From Mizuhopecten yessoensis (Eukaryota): a stretch of 64,000 nt of DNA. The stretch spans positions 285,317 through 349,316 of the forward strand of contig NW_018407247.1 of NCBI RefSeq assembly GCF_002113885.1, read 5' to 3'. Positions within the stretch are counted from its first letter, which is position 1; each line of letters begins with the position of its first letter. The notes beneath the pieces were generated by a model, which saw only the letters and a program-made list of their open reading frames with translations, made no database searches and was not told where the DNA came from. The position numbers and the translations under genes were made by a program. Below, piece by piece: positions 9,281-63,843 of this stretch.

Positions 9281-10429
9281 TTAAAAAGTTGGTGATTCAA
9301 CAAGCTGAGTTAGATTAAAGGAAGCAAGTATATCGCGTAAGTGGGAAGAATGGTGGTCTACTAGGGCATTTGCATTGAAGTCTCCGGTTATCACAATATG
9401 AGAGATGCCTGTATTATACGCTTTTTCTATAGAATGCGAGATATGAGACCATATGATGATAGGAGAGTGTGGAGGCCGATAAAAAATACCATATAATATT
9501 TTCTCTGAACCAAGTACAATTTCTAACCAGACACATTCAATGGTAGCTATCTCTATATCTGATCTTCTTTTTGCAGGAATTTTATATTTTACATAAACCG
9601 ATATACCGCCGCCCATTCGATCAGGTCTACAGTAGCAGAATGGGTCAGAATATCCAGGCAGGTTTAGGTCAGATGAGATATCATTTAAATTTAACCATGT
9701 CTCAGTAAAGGATAAAATTGTTATATTACTTAACTCGGTGTAAAGAATATCAAGTTTTTGTTTGAGACTTTGAACATTAAGATGGACAAATGAAAAATTA
9801 CTGACCGCATCGAGCTGGCCAGTAATATTCGAAAAAATAGATGAGGAAGATGAGGAAGATGAGCTAGAACACATGGGACCAGGATTCAGTTCTATATCTC
9901 CAGATAACAACAGATGCCAATAGTCCAAAGCACGACGTAGAGATATAGATAATTTATCAGAAGCGGACATGATAGAAGAGGAGATGAATTTAGCACTTAT
10001 GTAATGAATATCAGGGTTATATTTGAAACTTTTGACGCTAAGATGGACGAAAGAATACCTATCGTTACAGAACTGGATACTTGAAGAGGAAGTAGAAGCA
10101 ATTGATTGAATGGTAGAAGTAGAAAAGTGCTGTGAATTTAACTCAATGTCACCTGACAAATACCAGCTGATCAATGCATAATGTATTGATATAAAAGTAA
10201 GAAATTCTGCTAAAAAGGACGCGAAGTGGTAACATGAACTGCTACGGAACGACTCTCTGAGTGATGAACTAATATTATGTAAATAAGACGTAAAAACATA
10301 TAACAAAAGTAAGAGTAATGCCATACATAACATGTCGGGAACGGTCACGTAATGAGCGAAAATTGCGGACTGTATAAAATTGCTGAAGACACCAATTCGA
10401 ACACGATAGAGAGAAACATCAATAGGCAT
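9281..10429 (-). pseudogene. LINE ORF2 fragment: leader-2A-APE endonuclease
   Basis: Open frame from MPIDVSLYRVRIGVF (ATG at 10429) through LLLSGDIELNPGP (9875-9913) into the APE domain. Stops at 9281. Confidence 0.85.
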
Positions 10430-11599
10430 TATGTAATGCCAGACTGGGCAAGGAGGTAAGTGAGTGCTCGAGAAGGTGTCGTGATCATGATAATAGAAGT
10501 AGTCAGAGGCACACTGGGCAATAGGGGAGGGGGTAGGGCAGAAGAGGAAACGGATATAAAAAAAATGACTATGAAGAGTTGAAATACGTTCATCAGAACC
10601 AAATTTGAAGAGAGGGGGAAAAGACCAGGTAATTGTTAATATTTTGTGACCGGTACTGGAACTGAAAATACAAATAGTAATGTGCACACACACACACACA
10701 CACGTTCATACATGCTCGCGTTAGCAATCATAAATTAACTTACACAATGATAAGGCTCAAATCAAAATAACGTGGACATTATCACTAGGCCTCATTATCT
10801 AGTGGAGTAATTCCACTGGTATCTGCCACAACCAAATAGTGTACAAAAATATGTACAAAATAGACTCATAGTGGTGAGAATGTTAGTTACTCACTTTGAG
10901 AGAAAACATGGGTACATACAAGATTCTATTAACCGGATCCGGTATACAACTTAGGTATAGGTTTGCAGTATAGCAATATATAGCAAATGTATAGCACGGA
11001 GAATTTATGTAATATCATTTTTTTTTTAAATAAGTAGTAGATCTAATAATAATACAAGTAATAGTAGTGTTCATGATAATAAAAAAAATCGACTCAAGGG
11101 GGAAAAAAACAAATAGGTACTACTACATTCAGGATTCTATGATGCTGGATTAGCCGATAACACCCAACTTACAGGTTTTGGTACAGACATAAACAATGTA
11201 ACAGTACATAGCATGATATAAAGCAATTCAACATGTAAGAATATCATAACCAAATTTAAATATTATGTTAGGAGAGTAGTTCACTATCTGTTATGGCCAT
11301 TAGTGTATAATACGGACAAAAAATCATAAGACACAAATTGATTTTTGTTACACTAACGTGTACATTTTACACTGTTTATGGAATCTCTATTGAAATAATG
11401 ATAATAGACAGATAAATTAATCGACGCCGCTAAAATGGGTACTACTACATACAGGAATCTATATACCAGAGTCCTGAGGAGCTGATAACAGCTTACGTAC
11501 AAGTTATAAGAATTTATATTCTAGCTTGCGTATAGGTCTGATATATATAAATAAATAGTGTACCAATACAGATATGAAAATCAAATCAAGGTAACGTAT

Positions 11600-27499: not shown

Positions 27500-27594
27500 A
27501 ATCTGATTAAAACCAGAATTTTGATTCCACTCCCGATACTCTACGTTCCTAAGAGTATCGGGAGTGGAATCAAATATCTGGTTTTAACAAGATT
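27500..27594. mobile_element. Foldback/mini-MITE palindrome
   Basis: TTAAAACCAGA..TTTGATTCCACTCCCGATACTCT [loop] AGAGTATCGGGAGTGGAATCAAA..TCTGGTTTTAA. Confidence 0.75.
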
Positions 27595-28353
27595 AAAGTC
27601 TATAATTACTTACTTGATTTCCAGAGTTTCGTCTCGAGATAACCTGGAAGATGTTCCTGTCACAGATGGCCTTGAAGAAGAACTCGTCTAGGATGAATCT
27701 AGAATTTCACGTCTTGATTGAACCTCGAGGAATTTCGATGTCATCATCTTTTTTTAGTCACGCCATTAATTACAAGGCGCAGGCTAACACGACAACTTTA
27801 CATCTGATTTCTTCGCACGTAAAATCATCGTAATTATTGCCTATTTATATGAAAACATTTGTGCATAGTCAAAGCTGTTCCAAGGAGATAGCCGACATCA
27901 TTTATAATTCATAATCCTCTGAATAGTATCCCAAAATTAGGTATTTGCAATGTAACTCTTTGAAAAGCTGTTCAGATTTCTCAATTTTGTTTAAGCGGAA
28001 AAAAATAATTTTGCAGAGTATACAATCCTTTAGTTTGTAATCTAACATTGTTTCAATATATAATTTCCAATCTTCTTAAAGTCAAAGCTACAGACAAGTT
28101 AACCAACATTATTCCTATTGTTACTATGGTAGAATATTTATTTAAGTCCTTTTTAAAAGTATTCAATTAAAAGCAGATATTGGGATGAATTTTACAGAAT
28201 TTTTGTTATTTGAAATTTAAAAACCATGTATAGAAACACCGCCGAAATCGAAAGCAGTACCTTTACATTACCAAGTCAACACTTTACCAACGTCTCCTAC
28301 CAGGAACTATAAATGAAAAACAGCTAAACGTGAGTACAATTTATGGGCTACAA

Positions 28354-32317: not shown

Positions 32318-35300
32318 TAGTTTTATTAGTTTAGTTTAAACATATTTTATTGACAACATATTGACAAAGGGATTAGTTGGTAAGTTTTTCAAACTTATCA
32401 ATTGACTTCTCCCGTAATACAGACAAATACAATAATACAAAATTGTCACATGATGGTAAGAAAATAAATATGTTATTAATGAATGAGAGAGAGAGAGAGG
32501 GGTTGGGGTTGGGGTACGGTAAGATAAGAACCAGGAGACAGGACTGGGGTTGGAGGTTGGATAGAGAGGAGTGGGGTTTGTAGTTAGTCAAATCTACCCG
32601 ATCTTCCCAGGAAAAAATGTGCAGCCTTGGCTAGTTTCATATTACCATTTGGTGAGACGTTGGGGTCACCTTTACAAAGAATATCTACGTTTATGTCGCC
32701 TTCGTACCATTCTAATTCGGTAATGAGTGTTCTTCGTAAATTATAATACAAAGGACAAATAAGGGAAAAATGATAACAATCTTCACAGGGATGCCCACAC
32801 CTGCAATCAGCTAAACCGACTAGATTTGCTCTGAAAAGATCATAATATAATGAGTTAGCTCGATTTCTAAGACGACAAAGGAGCATATTTAATTTTCTCG
32901 GTCCATAGTTTACGAAATGCTTGCTAAACAAATTATTTACTATCATAGGCTTTTTTACATTAGACTTGAAAGAATTTAGTGAGGGTGAGTTTCTTACAGT
33001 GTTGTTCAAGAATTTTAATGTGGAAGAAAAGAAAGAATTTTTTGATAGTTGTAAACGGAAGCGTGTTCCCGCAGTAAATGTGCATTTCGCAAATTATACG
33101 GAGCTATATTTCAAATATACATTGGGTAATAAGTCAGTAAGAAATTTAGGTGCCATGTTATTTACTATAGAATAAGACAAGGAAAGTTTCCGAGCATCTC
33201 TTCTTTTCGAAAGGGGTAACCATCCGGTTTCTTGATATAAGAAATCTTTTTTAGTGAATGTGGTTAGCCCTGTGACTATACTTGCAGCTTCTAGATGGAT
33301 TTTTTCTAGTGACAGGGCGGCGATTGTTTCACCGCAGTTGTCCCATACTTCACATGCATATTTCAGTAGTGGTCGAACATAAGTAAGATATAGTTTTTCT
33401 AATGTATTTCTTTTTAAAATAAGTTTTAGTTTACGAAGGGTTGCTATATATTTGGTTACTTTACTGACAATATATTTAACATAAACATTCCATTTACAGT
33501 CGTTAGTAAGAATAACACCTAAGTGCTTATGTTGGTTAGTTATTAGAATGGGGGTATTATTAAATGTGAATGAAGGGATGAATGGGATATGCCGATTTGA
33601 GATGACTAGGGCCTCAGTTTTGGTAGGGTTAAAAGACATCAGCCATTCTTTGGACCAAACTTCAAGTTTTCTCAGATCAGATTTTGCTTTGGATGAAATT
33701 GTGTTTAAGTCTTGGGACGAATAAGACAGAGTGGTATCATCAGCAAAAAGTCTAGAGAGAGAGGAAAGATCACAGGAAATATCATTTATGTATATAAGGA
33801 AGAAAAGAGGACCAAGAACAGAACCTTGAGGAACACCAGCTTTTATGGCCTTAAAGGAAGAAAGAGAATCATTGATAGAAACCGCCTGTTGTCTGTTTGA
33901 AAGATAACTAGTAATCTACTGAAGAAGAGGGCCAGAAATGCCATAATTATTCAATTTATGTATTAGACCTCTGTGCCAGACGCGGTGAAAAGCTTTTGAA
34001 AAATCACAAAACATTAATAGAGAATGTTCGTTATTGTCTAAAGAGGTAACTATTGAATGGTATAGCTCAATAAGTTGATGTGTCGTGGAATGGTTAGGTA
34101 AAAATCCTGACGAATATTTGTAAAAAAGGTCATTTTCAATCAAAAAGTTATCTGTATGTTTATAAACCAAACGCTCAAACAGTTTTCCGATACAGCTTAT
34201 CAATGAAATCGGTCTGTAATTGGAGGTAATACTTACATCATTCGCTTTATAGATAGGCATGACATGAACGATTTTCCAGTTATAAGAATATGTACAAGAA
34301 TACAGAGAATAATTAAAAATAATGGATAGCGGTACAGAAATCTCGCTAGATAATAATTTGAGCATTTTATGGCTAATACCGTCAGGACCTGATGCCTTAT
34401 TTACATCTAGAATTTTTATAATATCTTCAACTTCACTGGGATTTCTATTTATTTCTGATAAGATGCAGTCAGTCCTCCTCTCAAAAAAAGGCAATCCTTT
34501 GTCTGTATCAATTTCTGATAACGAACACACAAAACTAAAGTAGTTATTTAAGAGTTCACATTTTCTATCGTTGTCATAAATTATTTTATTTGTAGTACCG
34601 TCTAATAACGGGGATATTTCGGTGTGTTTTTTTTAGCTTTAAGAAGATTTCGGAGCAGTTTCCAATAAATCTTAGGATTGTTGCTACTTTTATCAATTAC
34701 TGTATTTATGCTATCATAAAATATTTCTTTAGCTCTCTTAATCATATTATTTACTTTATTTCTCATGTATTTGTACTTGTTTTTGTTGCACTCACTGTTA
34801 TTGTTAAACATTATTTTTTTAAGTCTATCTCTTTTCCTAATATTACGTCTGAACAATCCATTCATCCACGGTTTATCACTATCGCGTACTAATACTACTT
34901 TTGATGGTATACATTTGACAACGGCATCAACAAATTTCTCGGTAAAGAAATTGCACATTTCATTAACATTTAATAAGTTAGCAAGATTGGCTAACCAAGG
35001 GATACTATTTATCGTGTCTTTAAGTTTGNCAACAATAATAGGGTAAAGAAGTGTTGAGGAGGTATCGGTTTGTCTAGTTGGTTCAGTTATTATATTGGTC
35101 AAATTATAGTTAGACATAATATTAGATAGATCGCCTCTAACAGTTTTTAGAAAATCAACATTTAAATCACCTGTGATTATTATATTGGTCGTTTCTTCAA
35201 ATGCAATATCAAGCGAGTGTCTCAGATGCTGCCATAAACTATCATTATTATAAGAGGGGGTTTATATAGGTTACAAATTCGATATAATGTATTTTGAAAT

Positions 35301-36300
35301 TTAATTTGGGACCATATAGTTTCATCGCTACCAATTTCAAGATCGTTTCTCCGCTTGGCTACGAGTGATTCAGAAAAATACATAGCAACCCCACCACCAA
35401 ACATGTTTCTATCCTTACGAAGTGGTTCAGGGAAACCATCAATTTTAAGTTCAGAATATGGAACAGAGTTATCAAGATGGGTTTCAGTAAAGCATAACAT
35501 ATTAATATCATCTATTAAGGAACAAATATAGTTTACGTTGTTACGCAGACTGCGAATGTTTAAATGAAACAAACTAAGGACATTGGGAGCCGAGCTACTA
35601 TTAGAATTGGGCCCCGGGTTAGGGTGGATATCACCAGCTATCAGTAAGATAATTAAGGCTGAATTGAATGGATTGCGGATGGAGTTGGACAACTGCAGTA
35701 GCAACAAATAGATCCGATGGAGACAGTTAAGATTGGAGATTAATGTTTTAAACCTTTTGAAGTAATTGTTTTTAAAAACAAGGGTGACTGGTAAACATGC
35801 TAACTTACAATAGAAACATCCTATAGCAGCCCTCCAAGCGCATAAGTCATAACCCGTCATGCAGGGACAAAATTAAAAATCACTAAAAATTGATGGAGGT
35901 CTACCAACAGTGACTGGGATGAACAAGCATATCCTAGGGAGGAGGGGGTAGTGGAGTCAAGAAGAGGAAAGAAATAGATCAAGGAAGAAGAATAAGACAC
36001 ACGAAGAAAAAACAGGAAAAGAACACAAGGATCGAAAAGGCATAGAAAAAAACCTATATACATTACTGATATGAAGCCAACAATTGGCATCAGCGATGAT
36101 CGACTTTATAACTGAGTCGACCATGGTGAGGTGGGTGACAATACATTGACAGGGAAAATGGCATAATCATGGTAATTTGAGAGGAAAAAATATAATAATA
36201 AAAAATTAATAAAAAAAAGAATACATATATATTCGTGTGTGTAATTTATATAAAAAAAAGAAATCATCTCGGAGATTTGCAGTAAGCATACATTGAAATT
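32318..36300 (-). mobile_element. Near-complete ORF2 CR1/L2-group LINE (leader-2A-APE-RT-C-terminal Cys/His), frameshifted
   Basis: Motifs GDIHPNPGP, HLNIRSL, CFTETHL, KASGPDGI, NYRPISL, DFSKAF, GVPQGSVLGP, LFADD, KHLGV and CRCGHPCEDCYH. 3' stem-loop, CAATAAAATATGTTTAAA and (AAACT)n tail. N gap at 35029. The 5' limit is approximate. Confidence 0.96.
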
Positions 36301-37067: not shown

Positions 37068-38110
37068 ATACACTTTTAAGAGGTACAAATACACTTTTAG
37101 CGGTACATATACACTTTTAGCGGTACATACACACTTTTAGCGGCACACATACACTTTTAGCGGTACATATACACTTTTAGCGGTACATATACACTTTTAA
37201 GTGCTCCATATACACTTTTAGCGGTACATAAACACTTTTAAGAGGTACATATACACTTTAAGCGTTACATATACACTTTTAGCGGTACACATACACTTTT
37301 AGCGGTACATATACACTTTTAAGTGCTACATATACACTTTTAGCGGTACATAAACACTTTTAAGAGGTACATATACACTTTAAGCGTTACATATACACTT
37401 TTAGCGGTACATATACACTTTTAGCGGTACATATACACTTTTAAGAGGTCGTATAAACTTTAAGCGTTACATATACACTTTTAGTGGTACACATACACTT
37501 TTAGCGGTACACATACACTTTTAAGCGGTACATATACACTTCTAGCGGTACATATACACTTTTAGCGGTACATATACACTTTTAGCGGTACATATACACT
37601 TTTAGCGGTACATATACACTTTTAGCGGTACATATACACTTTTAGCGATACATTTACACTTTTAACGGTACATATACACTTTTAGCGGTACATATACACT
37701 TTTAGCGGTACATATACACTTTTAGCGTTACATATACACTTTTAGCGGTACATATACACTTTTAGCGGTACATATACACTTTTAGCGGTACATATACACT
37801 TTTAGCGGTACATATACACTTTTAGCGGTACATATACACTTTTAGCGGTACATATACACTTTTAGCGGTACATATACACTTTTAGCGGTACATATACACT
37901 TTTAGCGGTACATATACACTTTTAGCGGTACATATACACTTTTAGCGTTACATATACACTTTTAGCGGTACATATACACTTTTAGCGGTACATATACACT
38001 TTTAGCGGTACATATACACTTTTAGCGGTACATATACACTTTTAGCGTTACATATACACTTTTAGCGGTACATATACACTTTTAGCGGTACATATACACT
38101 TTTAGCGTTA
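37068..38110. repeat. 20-bp satellite (TACACTTTTAGCGGTACATA), resumes at 38672-38731
   Basis: Tandem array is directly visible. Confidence 0.98.
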
Positions 38111-38111
38111 T

Positions 38112-38673
38112 ATATTATACAATTATGGACTTTTGTGCTGGTGAATATGATGTGATATGACATCATATCACATCATATTCACCAGCACAAAAGCCCATAA
38201 CTGTTTTATTATATGCTTCAACAATACAATAAAACAAAACAACACTAAAGGTTCTGATTTTTGTACGCGAGCCTCCGTGTAAAATGTAGCCAGGTTTGAA
38301 TACAACAGTTCATCATTGTAACTTTCAAAGGCATCGTCTATATTATTTTTCTTAAGATAAGCATGGAGGACATGCACTGCGTGTCCAATGGCCTTTTAAC
38401 GTTAGCAGCACCTTTATCCTCAAATAGTTTTGGTAATTTTCTGATGTAACGGAGGAGAAACGTTCGCCAGCAGCCATCTTCGAATGTCGTCTGACAGATC
38501 GCGTTCCAGTCTAACTGCGCATGCGCTACGACAGGTTCCGGGGAATTTCCATTCAGGCTATATTTAGAAATCGATATTCACCGGATAACCAGTCTACATG
38601 ACTTTTTGAGGACTGGTCACGTGTATAGGATCCGACCAATGTGATTGCGAGAAATGTTCATGCATATAATAAA
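38112..38673 (-). mobile_element. Internally deleted Crypton-type (tyrosine recombinase) DNA transposon with terminal hairpin
   Basis: Minus 38477-38250 (frameshifted) reads MAAGERFSSVTSE/KLPKLFEDKGAAN/KKAIGHAVHVLHAYLKKNNIDDAFESYNDELLYSNLATFYTEARVQK, resembling a Crypton/ZMYM-QRICH1-type recombinase N-terminus. Perfect 31-bp hairpin at 38130-38193. Confidence 0.75.
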
Positions 38674-39078
38674 CACTTTTAGCGGTACAAATACACTACA
38701 TATACACTTTTAGCGGTACATATACACTTTTGAACATATAACAAGCCAAATATGTAATTTTATAAAATGCGTTGTCGACTTAAATAAGTATTAAGACAAA
38801 GTTGCTTTGATTTCGTATTCAATTTCTCTTTATGAAATCTGATATGGCGGGTTTTTTCCTTTTTTTTCTTTCTCGAAATTTTGCGATAAAGTTTCATTAA
38901 AATTATCAGAAAAAAAACCATCAGAAAAATAAACTTATTTGACAGATCATATTTTCTTCTTTTGTCAGGCAAAACGTTTTTAGATTAATTGAAACCTTCT
39001 TCTTTGGAAGGTGAACGTGAGAGATTTGTTTGTACATTATATGTATAAGTCACAATATGCCGAAAATGAACTAAACTG

Positions 39079-52470: not shown

Positions 52471-53436
52471 AAAATTTGTGACACGCCACATTGTCACTTT
52501 TCCTGCTATTTTCATTTGACATACGTATTCATTATTGACTATATAAAGAGGTTTCAAGTAAAAGGAGGGGAATGTTTGCTGGCGATGTCTCTAATCATGG
52601 AGACAAGGTACCGGTCATCCTCTTGCCTGTCACGGACACGTCCCGGCCCTCAGGTTGTTTCCGGTACGGAAGCAATCCGACGCGACCTGTCGCGAACGAT
52701 CTTGACCACACTTGTCAATCTGTTGGTAAGGACGGGAAATGTTTCACGTAAATACGTCGGTTCTTTGAATACTCGTGGTCTTATGAGGAGCAGTGAGGCT
52801 CTCCACAAGGAAGTCTCGCTAGAAATACTAGAAAATACTACATGCACTACCACTGAGTAGCGATGGACTATTTGTATAGGATCAATATTTATATACATAT
52901 CAATCTGCTTATTGTCAAAATCACTTAATTTACTGAGATTTTGTATCGTTTCTTTGCGTCAAAGTAACCACAGATTCAACATTTTTGACATTAAGGTTAT
53001 TCCGGAATATTCTGTAAATGGGTATGAGGTAAGTACTTTCATTGTCATGCTTCATGTAGCTATATGTTATACATTTTACACGAATGCGAATGACTGACTT
53101 TAAACTATTGCTTATATTTTGAACTCAGCAAACCCCTGTGTAACCATATTCATTTTGAATTAATTTTATAACAGCTGTTTTTCCTATTTTGTACTATAAG
53201 TGATAATTATGAATAATACAGTACCATTGTACAAAACGCAATATTATATTCAGTTCAATTATGTCCTCATGGTACATATACGTCATAGTTCACGGAAATT
53301 GATCTCTTTAGGAAAAAGGAACATTTTCATTGTAACATCAGAATCGCATAACCCATATCAGTCCCCCTGCTTTCTCCCCATCACTTAACTCTCACACACC
53401 CCTCTCTATAGTAACACAGCAACTGATATTTAGTAG

Positions 53437-54065
53437 TTATGGAACTTTGTTGAGGTGAACGTTTGGTTATATGGACCTGAGAAAGTGATATTAACCATCC
53501 ATATTCACCGAAATAAAAGTCCATAAGTGTTATATTAGGTGCTTAATAATGTTTTATCAATAAAAAGACCGCGGCCGAACGTTTGATCATGAAAATCGAA
53601 GGAGGAAAGTGCTGCATATGACAGACCACATTGTAACGTCACAATTGAAATGACATTACTGCTATTTCTAAAAAATAAAAATAAAACGGAGTAACTATTA
53701 TAAAGTACTAACCTTCACGTGGTAATGATAAATCTCATGAGGATGTAGGATTGTACCTGGATTTATCGACCCGAGAAAAGATATATCAACCGAGGACGCA
53801 GTCTAAGGATAAATCCAGGTATCGACTGAAGTTCAAGGCTACAATTGTTTTATCATTTTCAAAACAGTAATGTGAGTAATCTGACAAAAACACAACAAAA
53901 ATGCTACGGAAGCGAGACGGTGCGTTCGTTTGGAGACACGTCATAATTCTATTTTTAGAAACACACAGTCCTTTAACAAAAATCAAGCGCTCCAAGTCAA
54001 TATCGGTTTTTATCGGTGGACACGTGATGCACTTCTGGCCAATCGTTTGTCGGGAATAATATGAA
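53437..54065. mobile_element. Two hairpin-ended non-autonomous elements (hairpins 53437-53526 and 53752-53822)
   Basis: TTATGGA..GGTGAA / TTCACC..TCCATAA and TACCTGGATTTATC / GATAAATCCAGGTA. Distal CACGTG...CCAATC motif as in the Crypton element. Confidence 0.5.
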
Positions 54066-61853: not shown

Positions 61854-63843
61854 GGTCTACTATATTCGACTCGTTGATAGTGTTTTGGTCTGCATTTAGA
61901 CATCCTAAATATCTTTCCCGAATATCAACTTCACAAATGGCACCATGATCTGACCAATCGGGCATGAAGTCCTGCTGTGATGGTATTTTGAAGAAGGTAC
62001 NNNNNNNNNNNNNNNNNNNNNNNNNNNNNNNNNNNNNNNNNNNNNNNNNNNNNNNNNNNNNNNNNNNNNNNNNNNNNNNNNNNNNNNNNNNNNNNNNNNN
62101 NNNNNNNNNNNNNNNNNNNNNNNNNNNNNNNNNNNNNNNNNNNNNNNNNNNNNNNNNNNNNNNNNNNNNNNNNNNNNNNNNNNNNNNNNNNNNNNNNNNN
62201 NNNNNNNNNNNNNNNNNNNNNNNNNNNNNNNNNNNNNNNNNNNNNNNNNNNNNNNNNNNNNNNNNNNNNNNNNNNNNNNNNNNNNNNNNNNNNNNNNNNN
62301 NNNNNNNNNNTGACAAATTAGCTTAAGTGCAGAACAGTGCATAAAGTAGATTGTAACTTCAAACAATCACAAAGAAAAACATTCCAGAGATACCGAAATG
62401 TGACCAAACAACGTGATTCGAACACAAAATCGATTAAAAAAGGGCCAAAGATGACCAAAGCAAAGACCAGTACGGCAACAAGGGCAAATGGGTTCAGATC
62501 AGTGGAAGAATTAGCATATCCAGAACCATTAACATCGATGAAAGTGCAATATAATTTTTATAACGGCAATTAACCTGTTGTATAGCATCGTTTGACCTAT
62601 GGTATTACTTCACTTAGCCTGTAATGTAACCTGATTTAACCTGTTTGGACTTCACTTTACCTGTTGTGTAATATCACCTTACCTATTGTATAACCTTACT
62701 TTATCTGTCGTATTACTCCACTCAACCTGTAATGTAACCTTACATAACCCGTTATGAACCTCTCTTAACCTACTATATAACCATACTTAACATTGTTTTG
62801 TATAACCTAACCTTACCTGTTGTGAAGCCTAAGTTGTTACCGCTAATTGCGGATGCAATCTTTAATTGTTCTGGTACGTTTTAAAAAGGAAAACCCCATT
62901 AAAGTGGACAAAGTAGTGGCCCTCAATAATTTGTTTCACACAGAGAGGTGTTAAATTATCGCCATTAGGCTATGGCCTGACTAATGATGAAAATTTCACC
63001 ACTCTTTCTTGAAAACAAATTATTGGGAGACACTCTCATACAATGTAGCAGACTAGGTCGGATGAAATGACGTCATCAGAGGATAACGAAAGAGGTTTGA
63101 CGACAATTGATCGTTGCAGTCATCTTGAAATCTTTTGATACAGGGTCATTCCGCCTGGTTGGCGAGAGGCCAGATATTAGCATAACTCACTTTGGAGTTT
63201 CATCAGGGCGTTTGTTCGACAATTCGTGGATTTTCTCGCATTTTCCACATCATTTAGGATTATGTTTGAGTATTTCTATCATGTTTGTAACTTAATTGTT
63301 TTTGTTTTGCATATTTCCTGTTAGGTGTTATGGTTAAATGTAAAGTGTACCTCTATGTCAGACTTTGTGTCGATTTCATTGAATTATTTCCTGTTTTCTG
63401 CCAAATCAAATATTGTTACTTGTTTGGTTTGCTATTTCGGCATCATCAGAAATGTTTGTGAAATAACATGACACTCATATAAACACATATAGGTTGACTT
63501 GTTTGTTGTGTAATGAAATCACACTTACATATCACATACTGTGACTAAGTGTCAATATGTACAAAACAATCATCTTATCTCATATGTTTGGCTTATAATA
63601 ATTTAACATCATCTTTTATTTTATCCATGAACATCTCACGTTACCTCACACGTCGTAATGCAACGAGAATGTACATGAGGACATGACATGACTGGAAAAA
63701 ATGGACATATGAATTAGGACCTATAGTCACGCTAGTGTTAACAATTCTACACATGAATGTAAATTACACTTCATATACGTCTGGTCAACACTTCGTGTAC
63801 ATGTTATAAACATTACACCCATATGTGATAAATAATACACGTG

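Follow-up and report, generated by a model that had tools for sequence, protein, structure and literature searches.

A hairpin-bearing element within a satellite array

The window, by which we mean the whole 64-kb stretch of DNA that was analysed, has a GC content of about 35% and contains many satellites and LINE-like reading frames, features that point to eukaryotic DNA, probably that of an invertebrate. Two regions on the minus strand (9281–10705 and 32584–35872) hold what we take, by their motifs, to be broken LINE-like frames with endonuclease and reverse transcriptase. On the plus strand, a 20-bp host satellite runs through 52 copies (37068–38115), is interrupted by a 557-bp non-autonomous element of Crypton type (38116–38672, no strand assigned) and resumes for ~2.7 units (38673–38732, plus strand), with an arm-like TTA from flank position 7. 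The original prediction had correctly placed the satellite directly beyond the right end of the element, but had given this end as 38673, a base that belongs to the satellite; the ends are best placed at 38116 and 38672.

In silico excision of 38116–38672 leaves one satellite unit with one substitution and no extra bases. Shifting the cut by 1–4 nt to the left results in two substitutions in the restored unit, and the boundaries were set at 38116 and 38672 because excision there restores the unit with the fewest substitutions. The last unit before the element, which carries one C-to-T change, forms the left half of the target. The empty site has the length of a unit without added bases, so that a TSD is absent, and the termini of the element are not complementary and form no TIR. 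Conventional TIR and TSD ends, which the original prediction had named as evidence against itself, are thus both missing, and the reading of 38116–38672 as a TIR/DDE MITE was rejected on these grounds. Direct repeats of 4–6 bp at both termini, the hallmark of CryptonF and CryptonS, were not found at 38116–38672 either: the termini share only ATA, one base inside the best cut, and the flanks merely resemble the right end.

Part of the window is contained in 17 public runs from six studies, four of which, all of them contig sets, were compared at 80% likeness. Four further runs with the same species label contained almost none of the sampled words. Summed contig depth in one of the compared runs (X1) was 13 in the unique right flank and 3,800–41,000 within the element, and a step in depth from flank to element was also present in the other three. 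Since summed depth does not give a copy number, it tells us no more than that the family is very abundant; the family is interspersed and has sharp ends. Loose contig ends with diverse flanks (agreement 0.41–0.48) cluster at 38112/38113/38116 and at 38672/38673 among the best 24 of 880 loose ends, in agreement with the expectation that the family boundaries coincide with the split arm of the palindrome described below. The piles at 38112–38113 probably reflect a target preference for sequence resembling the right end. No empty site was present among the best 15 of 128 joints. The copy at 38116–38672 is a dead, shortened relic of this abundant animal transposon.

Near its left end, the element carries a long hairpin with a left arm at 38123–38160 and a right arm at 38163–38200 (both plus strand). 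Within it, 38130–38160 and 38163–38193 are exactly complementary around a 2-nt loop, forming the longest perfect hairpin of the window; the next-best perfect hairpin has 23-bp arms. In place, the left arm runs on imperfectly through 38116–38129 to ~38114. The perfect 31-bp hairpin with its 2-nt loop had been predicted as a feature of the element, which holds for the window copy and fails as a trait of the family. In all four runs, many contigs cease to follow the window sequence at positions 38160 and 38163 and contain ~55 extra hairpin nucleotides with a GAA-loop motif, and most family contigs have a T at position 38180, where the window has a C. Depth in X1 is ~50–60 over the 2-nt loop as opposed to 23,000 at 38180. 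The loop (38161–38162, no strand assigned) is therefore the scar of a deleted, longer hairpin tip. Several single contigs have a different short loop here, and the deletion that leaves such a short palindrome is apparently recurrent.

To the right of the hairpin, 38249–38477 on the minus strand encodes the putative N-terminal piece of a DUF3504/CryptonA tyrosine recombinase (~78 codons with two frameshifts), which lacks the catalytic domain; the R-H-R-Y residues of such a domain were found nowhere in the 64-kb window. For comparison, a 43-sequence Crypton N-terminal profile was built from homologues (50 matches) of a protein of the assembly G001 (L014) that has DUF3504, Phage_integrase and QRICH1 domains. 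When 38477 to 38249 was read with an X in place of each break, the piece scored 17.2 bits against this profile, compared with a maximum of 8.4 among 2000 shuffles. The single-frame piece alone ranked first of 2931 window pieces, but its E value of 0.18 is not significant. As we had chosen the break positions ourselves, we scanned both strands of the whole window with a frameshift-aware search. The element came first at three penalties (26.0, 23.4 and 22.1; next 18.7), while the maxima of the reversed window and 10 shuffled windows, at the first penalty, were 17.2–21.2. At the level of sequence, the profile score and the scan lend moderate support to a Crypton recombinase homology of 38249–38477, in line with the Crypton-type N-terminal fragment that had been predicted here.

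Other searches did not recover this homology. Using the 49-aa single-frame piece, a Pfam search found no relatives, a word-indexed search returned one candidate and no relatives, and phmmer against 1.84 billion representatives gave two matches in repetitive proteins, which we judged to be chance. Recognition in the ESM Atlas was under threshold, and a search of the assembly G001, described below, produced two matches at E 0.18 in unrelated frames. An initial 9-sequence profile missed the single-frame piece and gave just 6.2 bits for the form read with X, and tblastn of 50 Crypton proteins against the window gave no match. An autonomous partner of the family was not found.

Pairing of the joined ends and spacer geometry

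The right terminus of the element (38662–38672, plus strand) is complementary at 11 of 11 positions to 38206–38216, and each of these 11-mers occurs once in the 64 kb. This check bore out the predicted continuation of the hairpin through 38194–38216 and its complement at the far end. When the two ends are joined in a script, the right terminus becomes the first arm of an att-like site, followed by a 7-nt spacer provided by the left terminus (38116–38122, plus strand) and by a second arm that starts at 38123 and consists of the first 11 nt of the left hairpin arm. The two arms are inverted at their inner 4 nt. An inverted copy of the junction lies inside the element at 38190–38216 (minus strand); it comprises both arms, separated by a 5-nt spacer (38201–38205).

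The joined fold has 52 Watson–Crick pairs out to 38216, with two mismatches and two unpaired T (38116 and 38118), and five further pairs extend it to 38223 (57 in total). The predicted size of the palindrome after joining, ~55 bp per arm, was thus a fair estimate, though just 11–18 bp of it come from the far end. The folding energy of the 145-nt sequence is −47.0 kcal/mol when joined and −40.4 kcal/mol in place. In the tip-deleted copy, the fold of the minus strand is slightly more stable than that of the plus strand (−50.2 vs −47.0), and hence no plus-strand bias is seen in the window copy. The junction sequence that had been proposed for inverse PCR proved to be, letter for letter, the reverse complement of 38193–38216, the real junction being 2 nt longer. 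Such a probe represents the other strand of the internal copy, is therefore uninformative on circles and was discarded.

A scan with the hairpin-tip motif led to G001, a 16-Mb assembly filed as a bacterial bin, which contains animal-like repeats (seen in L001, L003 and L006) and 34 DUF3504 matches; its animal-like DNA is probable host contamination. The motif had 130 matches in G001, compared with one for the control. Four of the seven genome-contig loci from the scan were dropped as chance or bacterial repeats, and DNA patterns found nothing in viral contigs or metagenome contigs. Repeats of Gilvibacter that lie 59–101 bp apart also carry the tip motif and are REP-like (L004:4001–4082 and L007:3245–3368).

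Thirty motif loci were fetched from G001, and 29 of them fell into six unrelated families, the exception being L058. Like the window element, all six of these multi-copy families have two paired arms around an asymmetric centre, the spacer being 7 nt long at the left end and 5 nt long in the internal copy; in families B, E and F the boundary was drawn from two to three copies. For families A, C and D, 30 more loci each were added, and rows in which no right end could be recognised (2, 2 and 14 of 30, respectively) and duplicate flanks were dropped, which gave 24, 27 and 16 distinct right flanks and 19, 24 and 12 distinct left flanks. In these three families, conservation ends right after the right arm and begins at the 7-nt spacer, and the host flanks are variable from their first base.

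Copies that bear a recombinase gene were considered as well, with the far end examined in 10 of 16 long loci (L089–L094 were left out). The 7/5 arrangement was present in three of the ten (L081, L083 and L084), two were ambiguous and five had no matching far end. L083 encodes an intact 548-aa DUF3504/Phage_integrase/QRICH1 protein, and its gene and hairpin are oriented as in the window element. Across the recombinase-bearing loci of G001, the hairpin is located either before or after the gene.

The flanks of family A contain an arm-like triplet after 6 nt, scoring 1.88 of 3 as opposed to 0.67–1.04 at other offsets (n=24). In the pooled flanks, 22 of 67 have the triplet at the 6-nt offset, compared with 2–12 at other offsets. 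A 6-nt target centre was not seen in family C (1.07; highest value 1.19 at offset 5) or in family D, which peaks at 7. The triplet also lies 6 nt into the flank at the window insertion, as well as in seven of the eight flank consensus lines listed for the family of the window element, which come from the same species and hence are not independent. At another site in G001 (C15, ~213150–213160; L074/L075), two family A copies meet tail to tail, their right arms separated by 6 nt, an arrangement that would arise had one end been used as a target by the other. Elsewhere, different elements (L003:3924–4640 and L083:2788–4790) occupy what is apparently the same G001 tandem repeat; like the window element, others may commonly insert into tandem arrays.

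The end-to-end joining that had been predicted has a counterpart in the contigs of all four runs, although head-to-tail tandems give an identical joint. The joint 38672→38116 occurs in one contig per run (among the best 15 of 128 joints), at depths of 72, 5.6, 204 and 29 next to flank depths of ~13, 12, 61 and 6. Its intervening letters are undefined and its short side spans 25–44 nt, under 30 nt in three of the four. A second joint, 38672→38118, was present in two of the four runs, with two letters in between in X4, where a third variant was also found. Both joints with known letters have 7 nt from the right end to 38123. Because the joints are at or above the single-copy level in three of the four runs, chromosomal tandems fit better than rare circles, and head-to-tail tandems in the G001 chromosome show the junction directly (L073/L074 and L167/L170). 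The joints in the runs may thus be chromosomal tandems rather than circles. Starships, which are likewise eukaryotic tyrosine-recombinase elements with end-to-end junction reads, differ in this respect: in the available text of the preprint, junction reads are rare (36 vs 6,959 terminal reads) and recombination takes place in flanking microhomology (bioRxiv 10.64898/2026.09.21.753150), whereas the joint contigs of the window family are near or above single-copy depth.

A candidate folded attachment site and its alternatives

The joined ends and the internal mirror copy would fold into one hairpin that is likely to be a recombinase attachment site, in a family likely to be of CryptonA type; we give this reading a probability of roughly 0.6. 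It appears best understood as a folded-strand site akin to the attP(+) of phage CTXphi and to integron attC, which would act through a single strand exchange. A recombinase supplied by an intact relative would join the ends into a circle (or tandem). One strand would then fold, whether it is single-stranded DNA or belongs to a cruciform arm, so as to place the 7-nt and 5-nt spacers opposite each other and between paired arms. In this form, the site would attack a double-stranded, arm-like and AT-rich target, often with a 6-nt centre. A single strand exchange would occur at the spacer edge, and replication or repair would complete the insertion. Such a model would explain the constant opening at the spacer edge, the retention of the element's own spacer and the lack of a target duplication; it would also explain why no opening is seen at the internal copy. 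That animal CryptonA in general integrate via a folded single-strand site which exists only after end joining, with the 7- and 5-nt spacers together taking the place of the target's 6-bp centre, is a more tentative proposal, whose chances we place somewhat short of even.

The attC site of an integron cassette is rebuilt on circularisation. As described, attC is a folded strand whose boxes are paired, whose central spacer is left unpaired and whose tip varies, all of which resembles the fold described here (PMC6393395). The window element differs from integrons in that it has no IntI, attI or cassette array. The CTXphi attP(+) of Vibrio cholerae consists of two inverted sites separated by ~90 bp. 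As duplexes, the two have incompatible centres, and they fold into one site, which meets the double-stranded dif target with its 6-bp centre; replication completes the process (PMC4246890). CTXphi is a phage that employs the host enzymes XerC and XerD and a fixed dif site, whereas the window element would depend on the enzyme of its own family, has loose targets and would form one site only after end joining. With two inverted sites and spacers of 7 and 5 nt, the resemblance to hairpin attachment sites is closer than the original prediction had claimed.

The main rival to the folded-strand model remains a classical double-stranded circle, in which the joined ends form a duplex arm–spacer–arm site and the hairpin and internal copy are otherwise employed: as extra binding sites, as a replication or transcription signal, or for end alignment only. 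By itself, the junction does resemble a canonical site, with inverted arms around 7 nt and, in L083, 9 of 11 arm matches. Ordinary duplex exchange requires matching spacers, however, and the 7-nt spacer stays with the element on one side, while the host flanks vary from the first base. A duplex circle also leaves the constant 2-nt offset and the pairing exactly to the terminal base unexplained. We therefore regard this alternative as unlikely, although it is the standing model for Cryptons (PMC3212892; PMC13565253) and, in the available preprint text, has been shown for Starships (bioRxiv 10.64898/2026.09.21.753150). For Cryptons, a 2026 review treats the circular intermediate as proposed and undemonstrated, and states that their mechanism of movement still lacks experimental demonstration (PMC13565253).

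Another possibility is that the internal copy just aligns linear single-stranded ends for ligation, as in DIRS1-like elements, and that the resulting double-stranded circle integrates via its junction. DIRS1-like elements have a tyrosine recombinase, lack a TSD and contain, close to one end, an internal region whose sequence complements both termini and is proposed to align them (PMC3266345). The window element shares this trait: 38190–38223 pairs with both ends, and the circular fold pairs both ends on 38195–38223. It lacks the gag, RT, RNase H and ITRs of DIRS1-like elements. An alignment function would lead one to expect a gapless match to the junction, but in all resolved families the internal copy lacks 2 nt relative to the junction, and, unlike in DIRS1-like elements, it forms the foot of a long hairpin. 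There is no reverse transcriptase in the 557-bp element, and the similarly built 2.0-kb L083 has one recombinase gene and room for that gene alone. Taken together, these features make an alignment-only role quite improbable.

It is more improbable still that a small TIR element (38206–38672) came to lie beside an unrelated hairpin by accident and that the palindrome is a by-product of its TIR. The body does have inverted ends, 11 bp perfect and 18–19 nt imperfect, but this composite is largely refuted by the lack of a loose-end pile near 38205 among the best 24 of 880, by the lack of a target duplication and by the recurrence of the same fixed-spacing layout in unrelated families and around intact recombinase genes. 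Least probable is a Flp-like inversion, for which a circle would hold two inverted arm–spacer–arm sites that recombine mutually or act as alternative integration points; it was rejected because the spacers are unlike in length and sequence and the order is the same in all 11 family A copies that were aligned.

Relation to described Cryptons and further copies

CryptonA, as described in the available text of Kojima and Jurka (2011; PMC3212892), shares with the window family a putative DUF3504-type N-terminus, high-copy non-autonomous derivatives, the lack of TIR and TSD and a proposed circle; no terminal repeats were found in animal Cryptons. The terminal hairpin, the internal copy of the junction and the 7/5 spacers are the points of difference, being undescribed in the accessible parts of that paper and of a 2026 paper on CryptonA (PMC13465315), where the words 'hairpin' and 'circular' have no matches. 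Two further sources (PMC5753468 and PMC4157794) add nothing on Crypton end structure in their available parts. No paper on this end design was found in the Crypton literature searched; subscription papers, Repbase and supplements lay outside this scope, and the latter two may already mention these hairpins. This is apparently an undescribed, testable end design of a known kind of transposon.

The interest lies in a design that is common to many families and not in the dead window copy. It predicts a folded-DNA recombination route, none of which was found for eukaryotes in the literature searched. If it proves true, eukaryotes would have an equivalent of CTXphi and integron recombination, in which a single strand is exchanged and replication completes the process; the enzymes involved would belong to the family from which the ZMYM, QRICH1 and KCTD1 genes arose. 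The arm and spacer rule offers a way to call the ends of animal Cryptons and defines an exact substrate for an intact enzyme such as P0004 of L083.

Several other hairpins and partial copies were observed. A decayed relative at 53428–53545 of the window has a similar left end, a tip-deleted hairpin and an internal copy with a 5-nt spacer; a convincing right end was not found for it. An unrelated hairpin at 27506–27601 (23-bp perfect core at 27520–27574) carries, at its foot, arm-like TTAA motifs that flank 5 nt and is possibly another family of the same design, although its far end was not found. A further hairpin (53754–53821) has 14-bp arms and a degenerate tip motif, and 26 nt on the minus strand (63615–63640) are 85% like the right end of the element (E 0.03). 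In G001, a hairpin-only copy (L006:3921–4110, the same as L051) has the terminal spacer on both sides and 11–12 bp of host flank inverted around the hairpin, and possibly arose from a template switch.
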